Source: Octopus vulgaris
Taxonomy: Eukaryota
Length of the DNA: 64,000 bases
Direction of reading: 5' to 3'
NCBI GenBank assembly: GCA_951406725.2
Contig: OX597823.1
Coordinates: forward strand, 66,092,001-66,156,000
Positions within the stretch are counted from its first letter, which is position 1. Every line of letters begins with the position of its first letter. A program made the translations under genes and the position numbers. Below the pieces are notes generated by a model, which worked only from the letters and a program-made list of their open reading frames with translations, did no database searches and was not told where the DNA came from. Shown piece by piece: positions 2,965 to 58,932 of the stretch.

Positions 2965-3650
2965 CAATGGGGATAAACAAATAAAGCACATCAAATATAT
3001 TAAATATATTAAATACATCAAATCCAAAATATGTATATATGTGTACAGGGAAAACAAGTGAAAGCATGAGATGGAAACTTTTCGATGAATTTTTATGCAA
3101 ACATATATAGATATTTGATGTATTTGATATGTTTAATATGTAGTTGTATATTAAATATATCTAATACATCAAATAGAAAATATGTACATATGTATACATG
3201 CAAAATGACAGAATGCACAAAGGGGAAACTTTCACACAATAAATAAAAACATATGGATATTTATCTTAATATGTATATATATATATGGATGTTTACTTAC
3301 ACAGAGCACAAATGGCAGAGAATTAAAGTAGTGGAGGAAAGGTGTTATAAGTCCAAAAACAGTGTCTGATGGCTCAGCGATCCATAATTATATTGGTAGA
3401 GCTCACTGAGAACCCAGAATCAGCTGTTGGATTTATAAACATTTCGTTCTCATTTTTAATTCTCCGTCATCTGTACTCTGTGTATGTTGGACCTATTAAT
3501 ATAGATACCCATATATTTTTATCGTCTGAAAGTTTTAGCTTTTTGCATTCATTCGTTTTGCATGTATACATAATTACATATTTTGAATTTTATGTAATTG
3601 ATATATTTAATATATTTGATGAGTTTAATTTGTTTATCTACATAATTGCT
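2965..3650. repeat. Diverged direct plus inverted repeat complex
   Basis: aaatatat..aatacatcaaat..aaaatatgta..gaaactttt at ~2995-3085 recurs at ~3150-3235; ~3455-3640 is an imperfect reverse complement of these blocks. Confidence 0.55.
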
Positions 3651-6945: not shown

Positions 6946-7603
6946 TGCCAGCGGCAAGACAAGCATACAGACACATGTATACATATATACATGCATATAG
7001 ACATGCATATAGATGTGCATATAAATAGAAATAAATTCAATCCCCTCTTTATACATATGCGCGAGTGCGCCGGTGTCCGTGTGTATGGAATTATATTTAT
7101 ATATACGCGAGTATTATACTGAAAGTGCGTAGTTGTATCTGACAATCATTTATCATTTGAATGTGAGCATTTATTCCGCTACAGTAACTTCATTACGTCC
7201 CATTTGTAATATCACTACCCGCTTTTACGTCTACCACAGAAGTACGATTTTAATTGTAATGCCTCTAGTGAACATCAGAGAATAAAATAAATATGTCTCC
7301 GAATATAAATTATATAACATATCTTACAATCTATTTCTTTTCAGCATTTAATATATTTGCTAATCTCGTTACACATTAAACCGCTAAAGCGCAGCGATGG
7401 AGAAGAATTCAATGAATGCGTGTTTCGTTTACTTGATTGTCATGCAATTAAATCCGTACATTAGACTTTTTCCGTGACAGGATGAACATGTCAGCTATAT
7501 TTGCTATATGTACAATTAATGAATATGGAATTGGCAAATAATATCATCACAATTTAATTGATTATGAGTCTGACTTTCTAGATTTAATACTTTGTGAATA
7601 GAT

Positions 7604-7757
7604 GTGGCTGTGTGGTAAGTAGCTTGCTAACCAACCACATGGTTCCGGGTTCAGTCCCACTGCGTGGCATCTTGGGCAAGTGTCTTCTGCTATAGCCCCG
7701 GGCCGACCAATGCCTTGTGAGTGGATTTGGTCGATGGAAATTGGATTTGGTCGATAA

Positions 7758-7809
<52 letters not shown>

Positions 7810-8026
7810 TTGTGTGTCTGTGTTTGTCCCCCTAGCATTGCTTGACAACCGATGCTGGAGTGTTTACGTCCACGTCACTTAGCGGTTCGGCAAAAAAGAC
7901 CGATAGAATAATTACTGGGCTTACAAAGAATAAGTCCCGGGGTCGATTTGCTCGACTAAAGGCGGTGCTCCAGCATGGCCGCAGTCAAATGACTGAAACA
8001 AGTAAAAGAGAGTAAAGAGTAAAGAG
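7604..8026 (+). mobile_element. SINE family A, near full length (tRNA-derived head, CORE-like block, internal TA/TG tract, (AGTAAAG)n-like tail)
   Basis: A-box-like gtggctgtgtggt and B-box-like gggttcagtccc, then atcttgggcaagtgtctt; closely similar inverted copies at 44252-44648 and 53691-54093. Confidence 0.9.
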
Positions 8027-8680
8027 AGATGTAGCTGTTTGGTTAGGAATTTTGCATGACAACTATGTTCATTTCTACTGAACGAAAGCTTAGGCATGTA
8101 TTTTCAACAGTAGACTTGGAGAGCCCAAAGCCTTTCAAATGAAATTTAAGGGAAGAAAATAGTTAATTATGCAGGGAAAATGTTCCAGTTCTTGGGGATG
8201 GATATAATCCTGTGCGTGTTTTAACACCTACTATAATCTTGTGCATATTTTAACAGCCAACGTCTAGAGAAATCGCTCTTGGCTGACGAGAACATACTTC
8301 CATCCTCTCACCCGTCACCAAATCACTGATAAATAACCTGCGTGTTTGTATTGTATTGCGTGTCATTTTGCAGAAGCGGATCGTATGCACTGTACCTTAC
8401 TCATGTTCACAAATCGTAACCAATTATCCGGTTTAGAAAAACCGCTCATGTTCTCCCTATTCATTAAACAGTTTAATGTGACCTTACAAAATGTAATGTA
8501 TGAACTCGTTATTCCTTTGATTATGCCATGAAACTGAGGAATTCTGAATTCGTTGGCTTTTTCGGATATTCATTGATGATCAAATTTTATATATTTTTAG
8601 CGTATTGTCCTCGGTAAATTCGTTAAAACTTTTCTGAATTTAAACTTCATCTTGAATGTATATATATATATATATATATG

Positions 8681-15334: not shown

Positions 15335-15543
15335 TGATCCTTTCTACAAAAGGAGCAAGAAGTGAAATTTGTAGGGAGAGGCTAGTTGATTACATCAACC
15401 CCAGTACTCAACTGATACTTCTTTCATCGACTCCGAAAAGATGAATGGTAAAGTAGAACTTGGCGAAATTTGAACTCAGAACTTAAAGACTTGAGAAATA
15501 CCGCTAAGCATTTCTCCTGGCGACTCCGCCAGCTTGCTGCCTT
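15335..15543 (-). mobile_element. SINE family B copy
   Basis: Reverse complement has ggcagcaagctggcgga, aaatgcttagcggtatttc, ttctgagttcaaatttcgcc and ggagtcgatgaa, as in the 28651-29465 units. Confidence 0.8.
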
Positions 15544-15548
15544 AATCG

Positions 15549-15583
15549 TAATAATAATAGTAATGATAATAATAATAATAATG

Positions 15584-25799: not shown

Positions 25800-25938
25800 A
25801 TCTCTCTCGGTTCGGCAAAAGAGACTGATAGAATAAGTAGAAAGCTTACAAGTAGAAAGCTTAATCCTGGTGCCAATTTGCTCGATTACAGGCGGTGCTC
25901 CAGCATGACCACAGTGAAAATTTCTGAAACAAGTAAAA

Positions 25939-25940
<2 letters not shown>
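25800..25940 (+). mobile_element. SINE family A, 3' half
   Basis: cggttcggcaaaagagac..gatagaataagta..ggcggtgctccagcatg..tgaaacaagtaaaaga. Confidence 0.8.
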
Positions 25941-25973
<33 letters not shown>

Positions 25974-28449: not shown

Positions 28450-29465
28450 AGCTAGCTAATCGTAACACAGTGCCTGGTCTAGCACTAAATGCTTAGCTTT
28501 ATTCTTCCGCCTCTTTACGTTCCGAATTCAAATACCCCAGAGGTCAGCTTTCCCTTTTATCCCTACGAGGTTAATATAATAAAAAACAGCTGCCTCCGTG
28601 GCAAAATTTGAAGCTATTAGTATTATTGTTATTATTATTCATATATTCAAGGCGGCGAGCTGTCAGAAACGTTAGCACGCCGGGCGAAATGCTTAGCAGT
28701 CTTTCGTCTGCCGCTACGTTCTGAGCTCTAATGCCGTCGAGGTCGACTTTGCCTTTAATCCTTTCGGGTCGATAGATTAAGTACTAGTTACGCACTGGGG
28801 TCGATTTAATCGACTTAATCCGTTTGTCTGTCCTTGTTTGTCCTCTCTATGTTTAGCCCCTTGTGGGTAGTAAATAAATAGGTATTTCCTCCGCCTTTAA
28901 AAGAAAAAAAGGCGGTGAGCTGGCAGAATAGTTAGCACGCCGGGCAAAATGCTTTGTGGTATTTCGTCCGCCGCTACGTTCTGAGATCAAATTCTGCCGA
29001 GGTCGGCTTTGCCTTTTATCCTTTCGGAGTCGATAAATTAAGGACCAGTTACGCACTGGAGTAGATATAATCGACTTAGTCCGTTTGTTTGTCCTTGTTT
29101 GTCCTTTCTGTGTTTAGTCCCTTGTGGGTAGTAAAGAAATAGGTATTTCGTCCGTTTTTACGTTTGGAGTTCAAATTCCGCCGAGGTCAACTTTGCCTTT
29201 CATCCTTTCGGGGTCGATAAATTAAGTACCAGTTACGCACTGGGGTCGATGTAATCGACTTAATGCGTTTACCTGTCCTTGTTTGTCCTCTCTGTGGGTA
29301 GTAAAGAAATAGGTATTTCGTCTGCCGCGAAGTTTTGAGTTCAAATTTGCCTTTCATCCCTTTGTGGTCGATAGATTAAGTACCAGTTAAACACTGGGGT
29401 CTATATAGTTGGCTCATCCCCTCCCCCAAAATTGCTGCCCATGTGGCAAAATTTGAAACCATTAT
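28450..29465 (+). mobile_element. Tandem multimer of SINE family B (about 5 full or partial units)
   Basis: Repeated ggcggcgagctg..ttagcacgccgggcgaaatgc..gaggtcgactttgcctttcatcctttcggggtcgataaattaagtaccag at ~28450, 28651, 28911, 29142 and 29312; ends aaatttgaaacc(att)n. Confidence 0.9.
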
Positions 29466-34916: not shown

Positions 34917-35711
34917 TATAGTCATCCTCAGAAAGTTCACTAAGCAGACTTATTCCAACCTCTTATTTACAGGTCTGTTGCCTTTTCTCGCTATATTTTC
35001 CATCGGAATATGATGACCTGGGTTCCTTGAAGCTGATTGGCCTCGCTTAACTTTCACTCTATCTGGTTAATACTACCCGTTATCTTTGCCATAAGGGATT
35101 CTTCTTATGCTTGGGGATCTTAGAGAATTGTGTTTCATTTTTGGTACTAAAAACGAAGCAATTTTATATGCAAACTCAGAGTTTGGCCTATTAGGTTACC
35201 TTGGACAGCCGAACTTATTGCTCCTTAAGACATTTTCTAAAGCAATTTCTTATTTGTGGTTTGATGCGACATGAAGTAGCTGGTGCATCTACCTTGGTTT
35301 CTGAGTTTTAAAAATCTTCGTCTCACTATTCTTCCCAGGACATGGTTCTGCTTTTCTTTTGTAGACTTGCGGGATCAAATGTTATATCTGCACTGAACAT
35401 CTGGCATTTTTGCCCACCATTATCGTATTTGATCTTCCTGTCAATGACTTGTGTGTTCCTCATTCACATCTATTGCAGAATCAGAAGAAGGGTAAGCGTG
35501 TCACGTAGTACTTGAACTTGAGCTTTCGTTTCATTCTGGTTTAGATATTATATATAAGGTTATGTGTCTTATATATAAGGGTATGTGTGTGGGTGGAGTG
35601 CGCATGATGTTGTATGGTATGTGTTGTGAGTTAAACAGTGCGTGTGGCTGCTCGTAATGCATATATATATATATGTGTGTTTATTTATATATGTATGTAT
35701 ATATATATATA

Positions 35712-36496
35712 TACGTATAAATTCAGGATATAATCATTAGAATGATTATATCAGTGGATAGCATATAAAAACCACTATATCGGTAGAATTAATTTTTAAG
35801 TATATAATTATAAAAATATAATTATAATTAAGGACGCTGGCGGACCAATGCCAATACGCTTGAAATAGATGTCAAATATCTACAAACCACTCCAAATTTC
35901 TTCTCTTTTTAACACAAGGCTGAATGCGATGAATGGAAAAAACGATTTATAAAATTTCGGATAACTCTATATTTAAGAATTTATGTTCTGTAATAGAAAT
36001 TACTTTACAATCTTCAGTAGAAGTACATCGACAATATATAAGTGAGAAATACATATATATTCGATAAATTTCTACGCACAGATACCAATATATACTTGCA
36101 TCTACCGTGTATACATTATATCTAATCGCCCATCTCAGCCATGCTATTAATGCCAGAAATAGTACCGGAGCAAAACATAATGACTAGGGAACTCCAAATT
36201 ATATATACGTATAAATTTAGGGTATAATCATTAAAATTATTATATCAGTGGCTAGCGTATAAAAATTACCATATCGATAAAATTAATTTTATAGTCTATA
36301 ATTATAAAAATATAATTATAATTAAGGATGCTGGAGTGTCAATAACAATACGCTAGAAGTAGACGTCAAATGTCTACAAACTACTCGAAGTTCTCATTTC
36401 AACACAAGGCGGACACCAGTACTATATTCATTTCGGCACTATTTCTAGCATTAACCACATGGGTGAGATGGGCGATTAGATATAATGTATACGCGG
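35712..36496. repeat. Composite of a ~208 bp direct repeat and a ~65 bp inverted repeat between TA tracts
   Basis: 35712-35920 resembles 36204-36410; 36106-36170 is the imperfect reverse complement of 36432-36496. Confidence 0.8.
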
Positions 36497-36503
36497 GAAA
36501 CGC

Positions 36504-36534
<31 letters not shown>

Positions 36535-36630: not shown

Positions 36631-37366
36631 TATAATAAACATCAGCAACAAGGAGATCCAGAGGTAATGCAGTACGGTCGTTTCATGCGACTCCATTTAA
36701 TTGAACAATGCAAACTTTACATCAATTTAAAATGTAGAGTAATCTTCACATGCATAAAATTATAGAATTTAGTTAAATCCGAATGATTCATTTGTATGGT
36801 TTTCTTTTTATCCAAAATCACAAAGAGGACATGTAGATACACAAAGAACATGTTTTATCAACAACATCACAGTTGTAACTGAGATTTGTTCAAAGGACGG
36901 CACTGCTTACCATTGATTATATTTGTTATTCAGATTTACTAGTGGGTGGTGGGGTAGTTATAATTTATAGACTAGTTTTTTCTAGTCTAGTAGAAACTAG
37001 AATCTATCCTTTATGGATAGGGTAAGATAGACGATTTAAGTGGCAGAGTCATTAACCAAGATTTCTTTGAAGTAAAAACGATTTGGTTCAGTAAGAATAT
37101 ATTTCAGCTAAGTTTGCAGGCTAGTGCTAATGGGGTAGGGAGAGTAAAACATAGCATTAACTATTTCCCAACTATAAAAACAGTGGTATTTATATATACA
37201 CAGATACATTTTAGAGTTGTTTCAACTAAATTCTATATTTTAAGCATCTGAAGATTGCTCTACATTTTATATTGATGTAATGTTTGCATTGTTCAATTAA
37301 ATGTAGTCGCATGAAACGATCGCACTGCATTACCTCTGGATATACTTGTTGCTTATTTTGATTATA
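36631..37366. mobile_element. Inverted pLTR-like repeat (~145 bp arms, ~445 bp spacer) with an HHR-like motif in each arm
   Basis: 36631-36777 is the imperfect reverse complement of 37221-37366. Plus arm: gcat-CTGAAGA..GAAAC-gatc-GCA-ctgc (37244-37328). Minus arm: GTGAAGA..GAAAC-gacc-GTA-ctgc (36669-36753). Confidence 0.7.
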
Positions 37367-38215: not shown

Positions 38216-38477
38216 TATATATATTATATGTAGAAAAATACAAACTGGGACAAGAACGGAAATCATTTAGAAGACGATACAAAAAATACGGACGGGATAT
38301 TCAAAGCCTTCAATCTTCAGTCAAGAACCGGATCATCCTCAGCCGAAATTGATTGGATGATCCGCTTCTTGACTGAAGATTGAAGGCTTCGAATGTCCCG
38401 TCCGTGTTTTTTGTATCGTCTTCCAAATGTTTTACGTTCTTGTCCCAGTTTGTATTTTTCTACATATAATATATATA
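38216..38477. repeat. Hairpin insert in (TA)n: ~122 bp arms, 16 nt loop, ~44 nt one-sided tail (38172-38215)
   Basis: 38216-38338 is the reverse complement of 38355-38477 with scattered mismatches. Confidence 0.9.
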
Positions 38478-40574: not shown

Positions 40575-40654
<80 letters not shown>

Positions 40655-40715
40655 CATACATACTCACACACACACACACATATATATACATACATACATA
40701 ACTACATACATACAT

Positions 40716-40880
40716 ATGACAGGCTTCTTTCAGTTTCCGCCTACCGAATCCACACGCAAGGCTTTGGCCGGACCGAGGTTATAGTAGAAGGCACTCACCC
40801 AAGGTGCCACGCTGTGGGATTGAACACGGAACATTATGGTTGGTAAACAAGTTACTTACCACATAGCTACTCTTGTGCCT
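40716..40880 (-). mobile_element. SINE family A, 5' half
   Basis: gacaggcttctttcagtttccgcctacc..tagaaggcac..cccaaggtgccacgc..ttaccacatagc. Confidence 0.8.
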
Positions 40881-40920: not shown

Positions 40921-40957
<37 letters not shown>

Positions 40958-40998
40958 GATATATATATATATAGGTGTGTGTGATTGTGTATAGAAGA

Positions 40999-41409
40999 AT
41001 ATATTAATAAAAAGAATTCCAACCTTGTCTGATTTTCACGTTTTATTTACAATCTTATAATGATATATTATAAGATAATATATTATAATTGAATAAAATA
41101 AAATGAAATAGTAGAATGTTAAATATTCATTCTGATTGAACTAGTACTTTCATGCATTGAATTCTGCAATCTTCGGGTTCATGTAGTAGTGTTGACAGTC
41201 ATGCTTCACAATTTTTGACTGTCAACACTACTACATGAACCCGAAGATTGCAGAATTCAATGCATGAAAGTACTAGTTCAATCAGAATGAATATTTAACA
41301 TTCTACTATTTCATTTTATTTTATTCAATTATAATATATTATCTTATAATATATCATTATAAGATTGTAAATAAAACGTGAAAATCAGACAAGGTTGGAA
41401 TTCTTTTTA

Positions 41410-41418
<9 letters not shown>
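40999..41418. repeat. Apparently perfect 203 bp inverted repeat with a 14 nt loop, inserted in (TA)n
   Basis: 40999-41201 is the reverse complement of 41216-41418 with no mismatch seen; loop tgcttcacaatttt. Confidence 0.95.
41236..41280 (+). ncRNA. Hammerhead-like motif (U4C; GAAA-GUAC-UA); mirror copy at 41137-41181 on the minus strand
   Basis: tgaac-CCGAAGA-t tgca gaattcaa tgca t-GAAA-gtac-TA-gttca. 5 bp stem I; palindromic AGTACT at stem III. Confidence 0.65.
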
Positions 41419-41456
<38 letters not shown>

Positions 41457-41658
41457 GTATATCTATATATATTCACTCCCTTTTTAGTCACTACTGTATG
41501 TAACACAGCAACTATAGGTATGTGAGTTAGCTGTGTCCATGAAACTCTGAGTGGTATTAGTTTTCTTTGTGTACATCGTTTACTACTTGTTGCCTCACCT
41601 CACTACTCTTTTAGAGTGGTATAATGCGATGAATTCCTAGCAATGAAGTTATTCTGCT

Positions 41659-43712: not shown

Positions 43713-44251
43713 GATGTATATATATATATTTATTTATGTATATATATATATATATGAGCGTAGTGCGTGTGTGTGTGTGTAAAATATGCATACATATGTA
43801 TATACATATATAAAATGAAAAATAAACGTATGTATACAGACACACGCACGAACACACATATCATAAACCCAAACACATTCACATAAACGCGCACTTAGAC
43901 AAATATATCTGTATCTAATATAGAACAGTTCTTTCAAAGATCATACGTCGCTCTAGTTTTTAAGTTCTTTTCCTATAGATCTTCATTTGCCTAATAACTT
44001 TCTATTTTGGATTTCAGGTAATCTGTCCACTTAATCTTTAGTTCGCAAAGCTATTACTCAAACATTGTAATAGTTTCTTAGTGTCATTATTTGAGAAAAA
44101 ATAGTTGAGTGTTCGCGCATTGCATTCGTCGCAAAAGATCATGTATACGCCATTATAACTGAAAGAATCATATACTACGAATTTCAAACAAATTCACTAA
44201 ATTTCCTTAATTTAAAATCTTTGTTTATTTTACATGTGCTACGCCAATATG

Positions 44252-44648
44252 TTACTCTTACTCTTTTACTCTTTTACATGTTTCAGTCATTTGACTGCGG
44301 CCATGCTGGAGCACCGCCTTTAGTCGAGCAAATCGACCCCGGAACTTATTCTTTGTAAGCCCAGTACTTATTCTATCGGACTCTTTTGCCGAACCGCTAA
44401 GTGACGGGGACGTAAACACACCAGCATCGGTTGTCAAGCAATGCTAGGGGGACAAACACAGACACACACATATATATATACACATATATACGACAGGCTT
44501 CTTTCAGTATCCGTCTACCAAATCCACTCACAAGGCATTGGTCGGCCCGGGGCTATAGCAGAAGACACTTGCCCAAGATGCCACGCATTGGGACTGAACC
44601 CGGAACCATGTGGTTGGTTAGCAAACTACTTACCACACAGCCACTCCT
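44252..44648 (-). mobile_element. SINE family A, full length and little diverged
   Basis: Near-identical reverse complement of 7604-8026, including the repeated tail. Confidence 0.92.
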
Positions 44649-45798
44649 ATACTTTTTTTGTAATTTGCTGCTGATAAATCTTTCATTTTTATTTCCTTGT
44701 GTTGTAGCCAACGGGTGTGTAACGCTTAGTGAGTTTGAGTTTACATCCATATGCATGTGAGGAGTAGATTCGGCGGGTTCAGCATAATCAAAATCCATGG
44801 TTCAATGCAGAGGAAGGCAGCTGAGTCAATGCATTGTGGTGAGCAGGGAGCAAGATGAGGCGAGCAAAAGATCTTAGTCGACCACTTCATCCCTTTCCAG
44901 CCCCAGATATCTTGACTTAGCGTAGCCGCTGAATTGAAGATGGTTGGAGAAAAAAGAGTGGGGCTGGCGGTGCGCAACTCAGGATCACTTTAAACAAAAT
45001 CACTCTACATGATTTGTATCATTTCCAGAAAGAATTAATCATAATCATCGTCAATCCGACAGTCGAACATGATTGAGTATGGCGCGGCCTATTAATGTTT
45101 GTCTGAGAAATTCTAATTTTTTATGTTATATTATTATAATGTACTACACTGGCATTAAATGTAACAAGCTGCTTCGAGAAGTTTCCAAATGATCTCTTCA
45201 CAAATTTTGCATGACAAAAGTCTAATGGCTTGCAAGTTTTATACTTTTCCGTTGAAGAATGATATTTTTCTACTATATACAAAATTAGAATTCGTGGTGA
45301 GGTATGACAGACGGTGTATTAGTTTTCTGAGATGGGCAACCAGATTACACTTTTTTCTTTGCTTTTGCATATCTTCGTGCTTGTGTATTTGTAATGGCTA
45401 CTTCGTCAGTTGTAACTATGTTCATTGACCTATATCGATAGTGTACTACACAACCTCAAGTAATGTAATGCAAAACTCGTTAAAATGTAGTTTTATAACT
45501 TATTCTGTACCTCAGTGGAGATGGTCATCATCGCAGTGAATGAACAGGAATTTATGTGTTTTATGGCATTCTTTATGCCCTTGATTTATTTTTAAGAATG
45601 GGGTGATAAACTAGTCTGAATTTATTATTGTGCTTGACATTAACGGTTTACGAATAGCAAAGGAGATGAGAAAATTTATTAATAAGACACAAATTATGGA
45701 AAGTACTTGTAGTTTAGTTTACCGTAGGAATGCTTATAAATGACGGCCAAAAGTCTATCGGATATTGGAATTCTCCCTTTCACCTACGTATGTGTATA

Positions 45799-49074: not shown

Positions 49075-49108
<34 letters not shown>

Positions 49109-49110
<2 letters not shown>

Positions 49111-49560
49111 CGTGATGCACATATGCCATTTGAATATGGCTAACCCATAAGGGTGGATGCTACTGTAGTTTGTAGCCCCAGGAAGATATCTCCTCCAGCT
49201 GGCCATAGACACACTATCTGTGTCCAGTCAGTGTCAAATCGACACTGGAAAAAGTATATGTATTTGTGAAGGGATCTGACTTCTTATCGACAACCATGAT
49301 TGTCACACGCTGATGAAAGGTAAACACCTTGAAACTCGGGTACGTGTGTATCATGTGTTGAAGACGGGGAGGATGACTCCCCTTCACAAATACTGACAGG
49401 ACACAGATAGTGTGTCTATGGCCAGCTGGAGGAGATATCTTCCTGGGGCTACAAACTTCAGTAGCATCCACTCTTATGGGTTAGCCATATTCAAATGGCA
49501 TATGTGCATCACGATGTGTTACCGCTACTGTATATAACTCGCTCTGAGATTTATCATTAT
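49109..49560 (+). mobile_element. Rod-like pLTR/retrozyme-like insert in (TA)n: 124 bp inverted arms enclosing a hammerhead, plus a ~45 nt tail
   Basis: 49109-49232 vs 49392-49515 with 3 mismatches; inner pairing gtatttgtgaaggg/cccttcacaaatac; (TA)n on both sides. Confidence 0.85.
49304..49348 (+). ncRNA. Type I hammerhead ribozyme with a fully canonical core
   Basis: cacacg-CTGATGA-aaggt aaac acctt-GAAAC-tcgg-GTA-cgtgtg. 6 bp stem I extended by atgat/atcat; 5 bp stem II; predicted cleavage after 49342. Confidence 0.88.
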
Positions 49561-50040
49561 ATATATATATATATATATATATCGTTGTTATTATGAAAAA
49601 GTGTCGTAAGTCCAAATCGGTGATTTTTCAGAAAATGAAAATTTAGTTCCACATTTCCTTAGAAATTCGTTGTAATATACTTGGACAAGTTTGGATATCT
49701 TGGTTTCTGAGGTAGCTGGAGATACGATAGTATAACCAAAATAACTGGCTATTGCAAGCAAAGATAATATTGAGAGAAAAAACACGCATTTGGCCGAATT
49801 TGATCCCAAATTTTATTTTGGTACGTATGGAAGCAACTGTCTTCGGAGATTCATGTTGTCGTTTAATACTCAAGATGTGAAGTAGGTAGAAAGCAGACAA
49901 CTGATGAAGGGCCATTCTTTACGTTACTTGTCTTGTTTTCCATTTGTTTCTCTCACTGCTTTCGTATTGATGGCATTTGTTTTCTTATGTCATGTTGTTT
50001 ACTGTTGGTGAAGTCCTGTACGCATATATGCATATGTATG

Positions 50041-51842: not shown

Positions 51843-53690
51843 AGGAGGTGTATGTTCGTCGTATGTATGTGAGCTACCTTGCGTCGCATAAAAATTTAAT
51901 CATGCTTTATTATTTCCAATTATCCTTCACGTACATCAAACTTAGAAGATTTATGTTACTACATCCTGTTATTATTGTCAATATAAAAAAAGTTTCAGCG
52001 TTTATTTACATATGTTTTTATGCACAGTATATATACCTTAACTTGTTATAGACTTTTAGTGGCTATTTGTCTGTCTTTGTGGTATTATTTTAGACTACCT
52101 ATTCAGTTTATTGCAGTTCACACGCTCTCTCTTACGTGTTTCTGGACGTTGACCACAAACCAATTTTCTTCGTCTCATTATCAACAAAATTATTTTTAAG
52201 CTGTTTACCACCTCTTTGCTCTTGTTTTTATGTTTGCGTTTCGTAGATACAAAATTGTTTCCTCAGTACTACCGACAACTCTTGGAATTGTTCTCCCCCA
52301 AACATTTATATTAACCAGAACGCCCTTGGTTGAAGATATATGAACGCACTTAGTTTACGATACAAGCTAAGAACGCCTGTGCATTATGATATAAACTTCA
52401 TGCTATAATAAAATTATCTTACATTAAACGATTCATCAATCTTCCATGTTCGAAACAAGCTTACAAATGACAAAGTTTTTGTAATAGATTCATTATATTC
52501 AAAATTAATTCAAAAAGGCAGTGCATTTCAACAGAAACAGGATAATAGTAATATTGCACCCCCACTTTGAGCTCTCATCCGGAAATTACGGGAGTAAATT
52601 TGTAAACTTTTATCATAATTATACTCAACCATTTGAATAGATTCAAAGTACCCCAAAAATATTTGGAATATTCAATTTGTATTATTCATTTTCGGATATA
52701 GGCACATAGTTGTAGCATGTGATAAACTACCTAAATTTTAAGCAACAAATAACTGCGTATTTTGTTCCAAATACAATTTGAATAAATGATGTTTTTCTTT
52801 TACCTTATGCATTTTGAATTTAAGTTGAGAAATCATTGATAATTTTATGGTTTTGTCAGCCATTGTTCCATGCACTGCATATCTATTTCATGCAATATTT
52901 TAATATAGTCTTTATTATGCTTGTATAATGGAGACTATAGATTATATGCAGTCGAACAACTGAAAATGTACGACGGATTTGTCATTTTCAACAGTAGTGA
53001 AACCATTACTTATTTATTAACAGTGCTTCACTTCATCATATTAACATCATAGCAAATAAGTACATACAAACAAGTAAATTTACATATATAAATGTCTTTC
53101 AGTTTATATATCTATCTCTATGTGTGCAATTACACGCTCACACACACATATAAGAATGAATGTATATATATATATATATGTACTGCTGGTGCAAGAATAG
53201 GTGGACTTTTCAATGTAATTCAGCATTGAAACAATCATCAAAGTATAAATTGTATGTAATTATAATGATTAAAATCTACATATGCTTACCATGAAGAAGA
53301 AATCTATTTCTTACGATAGGAGGGGATTCTTTATTCCTGAGATCGATAAACTTTTCAATGCTATTCGAAGCTGTTGCTTGTTTACAGAGTTCTGTATTTT
53401 GCAGCGGTAAAATGAGACGCTTCGGAAAGAAAATTCGTAAGGTATTTACTTCGTTATGAATCTCAGCAGTTCTCCATAGCACCACATTTATAATGTGACA
53501 TATTTTTGCTGACCATCCTGTCGTCAAACGATTGCTTGATAGTGTTTTCCGTTGTCCTGTATTACATTTATAACACATAACTTAAAATCGGCCGACCATT
53601 TTTGCATCTTAACTCCATGGCCGAACGCTTCCATTCTTGTTTTGTATTTAATTCACAGGCACAAAAGATGTATATGTATCTATATATATA

Positions 53691-54093
53691 TTCTTTTTAT
53701 TCTTTTTTCTTTTATTTGTTTCAGTAATTTGACTGCAGCAATGCTGGATCATCGCCTTTAGTCGAACAAATCGACCCCAAGAATTATTCTTTGTAAGCCT
53801 AGTATTTATTCTATCCGTCTCTTTTGACGAACCGCAAAGTTTCGGGGACGTAAACACACCAACATCGGTTGTCAAGCTATGGTGGAGGGACAAACACACA
53901 TACACAAACATACACACACACACACGCATATATACGACGGGCTTCTTGCATTTTCCGTCTACCAAATCCACTTACAAAGATTTGGTCGGCCCTAAGCTAT
54001 AGTAGAAGACACTTGCCCAAGGTTCCACGCAGTGGGACCGAACCCAGAACAATCTGGTTGGCAATCAAGCTATTTAGCACACAGCAACTCCTG
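53691..54093 (-). mobile_element. SINE family A, full length
   Basis: Collinear with 44252-44648. Confidence 0.9.
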
Positions 54094-58009: not shown

Positions 58010-58140
58010 AATGTTTCTATCCACTCGCTAAGCTTTGATCGGATCGAGGCTTTAATAGAATGCACTTGCTCAAGGTACCTCGCAATGGGACTGAACCCAG
58101 AGATATGTGATTGACAAGCAAGCTTCTTACCACACTGCAA
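58010..58140 (-). mobile_element. SINE family A, diverged 5' half
   Basis: atccactcgc..cacttgctcaaggtacc..gggactgaaccc..cttcttaccacac. Confidence 0.7.
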
Positions 58141-58154
58141 CTATTCTCTTTTTG

Positions 58155-58737: not shown

Positions 58738-58932
58738 GGAATGCTGGCAGAATCATTTGCGCCCCGGGCCAAATGCTTAACGGCATTTCACCCGTCCCTA
58801 TGTTCAAATTCCGCCGCTGCCGACTCTGCTTTTCATTCTTTCGGCGTCGATAATCTAAGTACCAGTCAAGCACTGGGTTTGATGTAATAGACTTCAAAAT
58901 TTCAGGCGTTGTGCCTATTGTAGAGAGGGTTT
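58738..58932 (+). mobile_element. SINE family B copy between AAT/ATT tracts
   Basis: gctggcagaatc..ccgggccaaatgctta..ttcaaattccgcc..ttcattctttcggcgtcgataa..agtaccag. Confidence 0.75.

Follow-up and report, generated by a model that had tools for sequence, protein, structure and literature searches.

A hammerhead-bearing 353-bp tandem repeat family of Octopus vulgaris, likely mobilized by a Penelope-type enzyme

Within the stretch of 64,000 nucleotides of Octopus vulgaris that was analysed here (contig OX597823.1, positions 66,092,001 to 66,156,000; hereafter the window), the segment 49109-49560 combines a long inverted repeat with a hammerhead ribozyme, raising the question whether this rod-like structure is itself the mobile unit or a product of the way in which another unit was inserted. 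The initial annotation regarded it as a rod of about 450 nt with a hammerhead at the apex, and suggested a young retrozyme-like or Penelope-derived element. Most of the described structure was confirmed. The two 124-bp arms (49109-49232 and 49392-49515) pair with three mismatches, and the inner pairings named in the annotation are present in the predicted fold as a 14-bp helix (49260-49273/49380-49393) followed by helices of 4 bp and 5 bp. The segment is richer in GC (44%) than its 1-kb flanks (35-36%), is bounded by (AT)14 at 49083-49110 and (TA)12 at 49558-49581, and lacks a meaningful reading frame, the longest over the element being an 85-aa frame that starts at GTG on the minus strand. 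When both strands of the window were scanned with a strict descriptor, exactly one type I hammerhead was detected, at 49304-49348, in agreement with the claim of a single ribozyme. In contrast, the rod was wrongly taken as the unit: the unit is a tandem monomer of 353 bp, and the outer arm is specific to this locus. Most probably, the window carries one insertion of a 353-bp non-coding hammerhead tandem family, likely moved in trans by a Penelope-like enzyme (GIY-YIG and RT), the 124-bp arm representing a second, partial and inverted copy produced by the insertion.

When mapped on the unit, the window copy was found to consist of two head-to-head pieces. The direct copy (49228-49558, plus strand) covers unit positions 1-331 of 353, lacking 332-353, stops at the end point designated B, and is 96% identical to a natural tandem unit of locus L027. 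The reader's left arm of the rod (49109-49232, minus strand) is an inverted, 5'-truncated copy of unit positions 165-288, which stops at the other end point, A, and has no tail. At the inversion joint the two pieces share a microhomology of 5 nt (49228-49232). The (AT)14 and (TA)12 microsatellites represent the left and right flanks of the target, and nearly all ends of the family adjoin such (TA)n runs. Along the plus strand, the unit starts with an 8-bp hairpin (49228-49248), for which two-sided changes were detected in three of eight pairs with only 65% of the cells paired. There follows the intrinsic ribozyme-bearing stem (49260-49393), composed of the 14-bp closing helix and an extended stem I, and this stem, unlike the outer arm, is present in every unit. 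Within it lie a site (49284-49303), empty in this copy, whose homologues elsewhere form the 20-bp target-site duplication of a site-specific L1/Tx1-type LINE, and the canonical metazoan type I hammerhead (49304-49348), with its core from 49310 and a predicted cut after 49342. End A (near 49515) is located in a small stem-loop of the 3' multibranch domain (49477-49524), which may be the first start site of reverse transcription, partly by analogy to the system described in PMC11167929. The 43 nt from end A to end B (49516-49558) form an optional 'tail', with a putative second start site at 49558, and the element accordingly continues 43 nt beyond the end of the right arm. A short motif at unit position 1 (49228-49232), where 5' ends are not in excess, is kept in all three subfamilies described below; we take it to resemble the initiator consensus. 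Directly after the right (TA)n run, another high-copy repeat begins (49593-49976), as noted from the deep contig cover. Since the window copy has a single hammerhead and less than one unit (331 of 353 nt), it is probably inert, a dead end that by itself would release no monomer. Two tandem hammerheads were found at 5 of 87 loci of the same subfamily, and these loci are candidate sources.

The hammerhead has the 6-bp stem I and the intact core that had been claimed for it, together with a stem II of 5 bp, a stem III of 2 bp and a loop of 4 nt. Throughout the family stem I is of 6 bp, stem II of 4-5 bp and stem III of 1-2 bp, and the loop is palindromic, in agreement with the canonical metazoan type I hammerhead as defined in the relevant passages of PMC4209133. 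The Rfam hammerhead model, for which the gathering threshold alone was applied, gave no match at that score anywhere in the window. Among nine hammerhead variants, a sample of related sequences, 93% of the cells are paired and two-sided changes occur in 9 of 20 pairs, a level that none of 500 shuffles equalled and that far exceeds the slid controls. We count this covariation of the ribozyme as demonstrated; self-cutting itself is a prediction. The fold does not present the ribozyme as the annotation had it, since the lowest-energy structure traps the catalytic CUGA against loop III with a probability of 0.95. The active hammerhead fold is calculated to lie 5.6 kcal/mol above the minimum, in a model that leaves tertiary contacts and dimers outside. 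Loop III and stem III may form an 8-bp self-duplex, as judged from the same modelling, and loop III is self-complementary across the variants despite their differing sequences. A short palindromic helix III is described in parts of PMC4209133 as a mark of hammerheads acting as dimers. From the modelled folds, the hammerhead of this family is likewise predicted to act best as a dimer and to misfold as a monomer. For Xenopus retrozymes, eight of nine dimers gave no cleavage in vitro (10.64898/2026.07.22.740005).

The genome contains 126 exact copies of the 33-nt hammerhead core and none of the reversed control, and the conservation of the core among homologues is apparent from both these copies and the nine covarying variants. 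The best DNA matches to the window element are 97-100% identical to it. For mapping on the natural tandem unit, the 30 best DNA matches were combined with 60 additional places, taken from the first 100 of the 126 cores as listed; removal of overlaps left 87 sites, equivalent to 89 clusters as two sites are split by the LINE (loci L050 and L051 look like mutual duplicates). The monomer of 353 bp is arranged in partial tandems, most sites being dispersed and shorter than two units, and no LTR-type layout was seen in the mapped copies. It is non-coding, with 43% GC and a type I hammerhead in each unit, and lies within the range given for non-LTR retrozyme units (150-450 bp, less than 50% GC). Searches with diverged copies identified two further subfamilies, about 87% and about 75% alike (the older ones 70-87%), and the period is 352-356 in all three. 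Arrays of up to six units were found, with normal A and B ends (locus L224). Across nine whole-unit sequences, two-sided changes occur in 19 of 77 pairs with 83% paired, compared with 6-9 pairs and 34-46% for slid structures; the structure was derived from the window sequence, and kinship of the sequences inflates these counts. Six natural cut-to-cut units, when folded as circles, gave predicted z-scores from −3.0 to −8.1. A far older member, about 62% alike (L172:1-351), has retained an inverted arm of 200 bp together with an end of type B.

Copies stop at one of two points separated by 43 nt: end A lies at about unit 280-288 (window 49515) and end B at about unit 331-334 (window 49558). The 89 clusters of the window's subfamily include 48 inverted, 40 direct and 1 complex insertion. 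All 42 typable inverted clusters are of A+B type, with no A+A or B+B, and of the six untyped ones two turn into A+B once an inserted LINE is bridged; the direct insertions end at A in 19 cases and at B in 21. In subfamily 2, A+B was found for eight of nine inverted insertions (22 loci remaining of 30 after removal of overlapping ones). Subfamily 3 (29 of 30 loci) has 18 inverted insertions, 11 A+B, 3 A+A, 1 B+B and 3 untyped, and two of the three A+A loci are the same four-piece rearrangement. Altogether A+B accounts for 61 of 75 head-to-head insertions in the three subfamilies, and 40 of 78 inversion joints show an overlap of 1-6 nt. In comparisons with contigs, pieces of the family were present, but no empty allele, no informative joint and nothing bearing on cleavage was found.

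An inverted 5'-truncated copy and an optional tail of 30-40 bp at one end are given as the signature of Penelope-like insertion in passages of two studies (PMC8557442; PMC3846280). The octopus copies show the partial tandem with the head-to-head 5'-truncated inverted copy, and we take their 43-nt tail, single-ended in all 42 typable inverted loci, to represent the optional tail. Moreover, an anole Penelope-like element in vitro cuts and extends both strands, and uses two reverse-transcription start sites of which the spacing equals the tail (PMC11167929). The match of the A/B tail and the inversions with this signature indicates that a non-LTR retrozyme-type element is likely moved by a Penelope enzyme. 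The likeness to Penelope-like elements with an endonuclease (EN+) extends, in the portions of PMC8557442, PMC3846280 and PMC11167929 concerned, to the microsatellite or AT-rich targets and to a hammerhead upstream of two start sites. The octopus family differs from these elements in the lack of an ORF, in the tail of 43 nt instead of 30-40, and in its canonical instead of minimal hammerhead; strict A+B pairing is unquantified in the passages of PMC8557442 and PMC3846280.

The enzyme concerned was searched for in the same genome. The annotation suggested looking for a parent Penelope ORF upstream of the homologues, and none was found in phase with any copy fetched. In the search of GIY-YIG families, the best 150 of 6136 candidates were scored. 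Neither BLAST nor a family profile detected pLTR homology to the unit among 50 GIY-YIG loci (30 loci and 20 longer stretches); only separate insertions of the family nearby were found. As this gives no sequence link to an autonomous Penelope-like element, the helper is deduced solely from the anatomy of the insertions. One young two-ORF Penelope-like family (L154-L161, e.g. L157:244-5490), with an ORF1 of about 480 amino acids and an ORF2 of 781 amino acids carrying RT and GIY-YIG, is present in many near-identical copies. Its copies run into (TA)n at either of two end points separated by 30 nt; among eight copies viewed, one was an A+B inverted insertion. The terminal repeat of this family contains a minimal hammerhead variant with a U3-A8-type core. 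The family, possibly Neptune-like, is only a candidate for the helper. A 648-aa frame with an RT-like core (L084:520-2463, minus strand), which we assume to be Naiad-like by its motifs, was set aside because it has no Pfam match and its start lies past the (TA)n run of the family copy.

The absence of a parent bears on the best of the alternatives, according to which the repeats would be terminal stubs, or pseudo-LTRs, of an unfound autonomous Penelope-like element, copied from its own uncut transcript with no need for a retrozyme cycle or circle. The tail, the inversion and the (TA)n targeting are indeed those of ordinary Penelope insertions, the anole element inserts without needing its ribozyme and uses uncut RNA as the main template (PMC11167929), and the parent search was confined to the best-scoring candidates given above. 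Nevertheless, the units continue only into another unit and never into an ORF, and the long ORFs beside copies either belong to the LINE or lie past a (TA)n run. The 353-bp period is furthermore held across subfamilies 70-97% alike, and the hammerhead, canonical with its 6-bp stem I, differs from the minimal type that parts of PMC4209133 describe in metazoan Penelope repeats. Taken together, these observations make such an origin improbable. Of the earlier retrozyme-like or Penelope-related reading, the young, multicopy, non-coding and Penelope-linked nature and the conserved hammerhead stand; the rod as the unit does not, and no parent Penelope ORF was found among the candidates scored.

Returning to a retrozyme-type element moved in trans, we considered the nature of its template. 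The 5' ends are flat over the unit (179 ends, and 230 ends in a second count), subject to a bias from the choice of loci for containing a hammerhead; in the histograms, neither the ribozyme cut nor the LINE site (unit 57-60) stands out, nor does unit position 1, a potential transcription start. A cut linear monomer was rejected as template: a pattern excluding intact copies gave five matches compared with 126 intact cores, and three of these five break within 2 nt of the cut. The flat distribution at the cut and the small number of broken copies indicate that the template is either a circle or an uncut multimer. Because arrays reach six units with normal ends and more than one unit is covered by 59 of 175 arms, we lean toward the circle. 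Units are only slightly more alike within a locus than between loci, the median differences per 210 nt being 3 and 5 in subfamily 1 and 2 and 2 in subfamily 2, and this small difference does not establish a circle over an uncut tandem transcript as the template. Starting from what was directly observed (the length and copy number of the unit, its (TA)n targets, the two fixed 3' ends and their A+B pairing in inverted insertions, scattered 5' ends, microhomology joints and ribozyme covariation), the following pathway may be proposed. The few loci with two hammerheads would be transcribed, and the RNA would be cut, probably as dimers, to unit length and closed into a circle. A Penelope enzyme would then cut both strands of a (TA)n run, cDNA being primed on one side at site A and on the other at site B. 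Each cDNA would extend backwards on the template, past the point of ribozyme cutting and in some cases for more than one round, and the two cDNAs would be joined head-to-head by microhomology. Against this explanation as a whole count the A+A and B+B inverted loci of subfamily 3, the absent helper homology among the 50 GIY-YIG loci, the selection of loci by hammerhead, the predicted misfolding of the monomer and the failure of most Xenopus dimers to cleave in vitro.

The L1/Tx1-type LINE mentioned above, for which the clade name is from the domain layout (AP endonuclease, RT and zf-RVT), is found just upstream of stem I at 5 of the 87 sites, 82 being without it. Of its best 30 3' ends, 27 run into the hammerhead region of the family (22 of 25 among those not used for discovery); the remaining three run into a duplication and a second LINE, into another hammerhead repeat (L114), where this LINE copy sits at the matching place, and into unrelated DNA. 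Likewise, at 27 of the best 30 5' ends the LINE begins after unit position 74-79 (some of the oldest ends were assigned by eye), while two follow another LINE and a duplication and one follows another part of the unit. The target-site duplication is 20 bp in all four full-length copies and 16-19 bp in three truncated ones. This LINE family is young and includes tandem insertions (L084, L121-L123, L091-L120, L234-L263). As the LINE ends are 94-99% alike and their hosts 66-99% alike, the insertions are independent of each other. Targeting of other transposons by Tx1 LINEs is known from passages of PMC4494074. The abrupt passage of 27 of 30 LINE 3' ends into the hammerhead region could also be read as a SINE-like partnership in which the LINE moves the repeat, but the LINE lies inside the unit between target-site duplications, its ends are more uniform than the hosts, nearly all sites are LINE-free, and the ends of the family are A or B with (TA)n and not LINE tails, making this reading very unlikely. 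The repeat is the target of the LINE, not its passenger.

The fold z-score of 49109-49560 is −31.9, most of which is accounted for by the arms; that of the direct unit alone is −5.3, and that of 49255-49395 is −7.0. The three arm mismatches are private changes, each in a single arm, and none is compensated, while both arms carry the same rare variants. The common variants and the three private uncompensated changes together indicate one template lineage followed by drift. The inverted part varies at every locus and the arm changes are uncompensated, and thus the long rod arose once, as a by-product of the insertion of the window copy. A viroid-like or MITE-like element of about 450 nt, with long terminal inverted repeats and a functional rod as first proposed, has in its favor the reality of the arms (98% complementary) and the extreme z-score, but it is refuted as a family feature and is the least credible reading of all, since the arm ranges from 25 to 804 nt in the window's subfamily and up to 2122 nt in the next, was not detected in 40 of the 89 clusters, comes from inside the unit and is outrun by the element on the right side, and the fixed terminal inverted repeats expected to be common to MITE copies were not found across the mapped clusters.

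Three more long palindromes (40921-41472, 38216-38477 and 3147-3614), with arms up to 257 nt, are present in the window. The descriptor scan identified no canonical type I hammerhead in these three, which by analogy are likely head-to-head insertions of other Penelope-type repeats. The window also contains a dispersed repeat of about 400 bp, represented by no fewer than seven copies or fragments with 72-94% similarity (7598-8027, 44247-44650, 53686-54092, 40654-40880, 1547-1777, 25808-25943 and 58019-58154). Partial-tandem repeats of about 250-260 bp (28615-29407, 15384-15577 and 58743-58894) and a tandem/inverted cluster (35706-36513 and 36631-37366) resemble the hammerhead family in layout.

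Among known systems, the closest are the metazoan non-LTR retrozymes, which in the sections of PMC7229834 compared here share the non-coding tandem units of 150-450 bp with one type I hammerhead each and a GC content below 50%, as well as a well-folded predicted circle; units of about 350 nt are likewise found in mussel and axolotl. The octopus family, judged on its DNA, fits this class in every feature compared. It differs in being known from DNA alone, circular RNA and cleavage being described for the retrozymes of PMC7229834, and in that most sites are dispersed with less than two units. A Penelope helper was proposed in the same paper from co-occurrence, and the words 'inverted', 'tail', 'microsatellite' and 'Octopus' do not occur in its main text. 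A 2026 preprint (10.64898/2026.07.22.740005) also concluded a Penelope helper and described dispersed monomers with rare multimers, on a different basis, i.e. co-occurrence in 35 species, with no mollusc, and pLTR homology in Xenopus, leaving the mechanism open. Unlike the Xenopus case, the octopus unit has no pLTR homology at the 50 GIY-YIG loci, but its insertion ends carry the Penelope signature. For the LINE, the parallels in the pertinent parts of PMC4494074 are Xenopus Tx1 in Tx1D and crocodilian Tx1-Mar in Mariner-N4_AMi, with one-site targeting of a mobile element, long duplications and tandem insertions; the octopus target differs from Tx1D and Mariner-N4_AMi in being a hammerhead retrozyme, and is unoccupied in the window copy. 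In the portions of PMC13282606 dealing with repeats of an octopus genome, recent Penelope and L1-Tx1 families are annotated and ribozymes are unmentioned. The literature searched contains no report of this octopus family or of any cephalopod retrozyme; Repbase and the supplementary files of PMC7229834 and the 2026 preprint lay outside that search and may list such elements. Neither an A+B rule for retrozymes nor a Tx1 element targeting a hammerhead repeat was found in it.

The window locus itself is ordinary. The link with a Penelope helper is already in print, and the insertion anatomy of this family adds direct support to it by a strict rule, one arm per start site, which fits the two-strand cutting and two start sites observed in vitro. 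The whole may possibly represent a three-tier chain of parasites, composed of a retrozyme circle unrelated to its helper, a Penelope dimer, and a site-specific LINE parasite, although we hold this joint proposal only tentatively. In such a chain, the dimer would prime both sides of one (TA)n cut with its subunits at A and B, rolling round the circle, and the family would renew itself through several subfamilies with a dimer-dependent hammerhead kept. If true, the 353-nt RNA would provide a minimal substrate for dissecting the inversions and tails of Penelope elements. Since a single genome offers the small RNA, two start points, the target and a candidate for the helper, the link between the octopus family and Penelope becomes directly testable.
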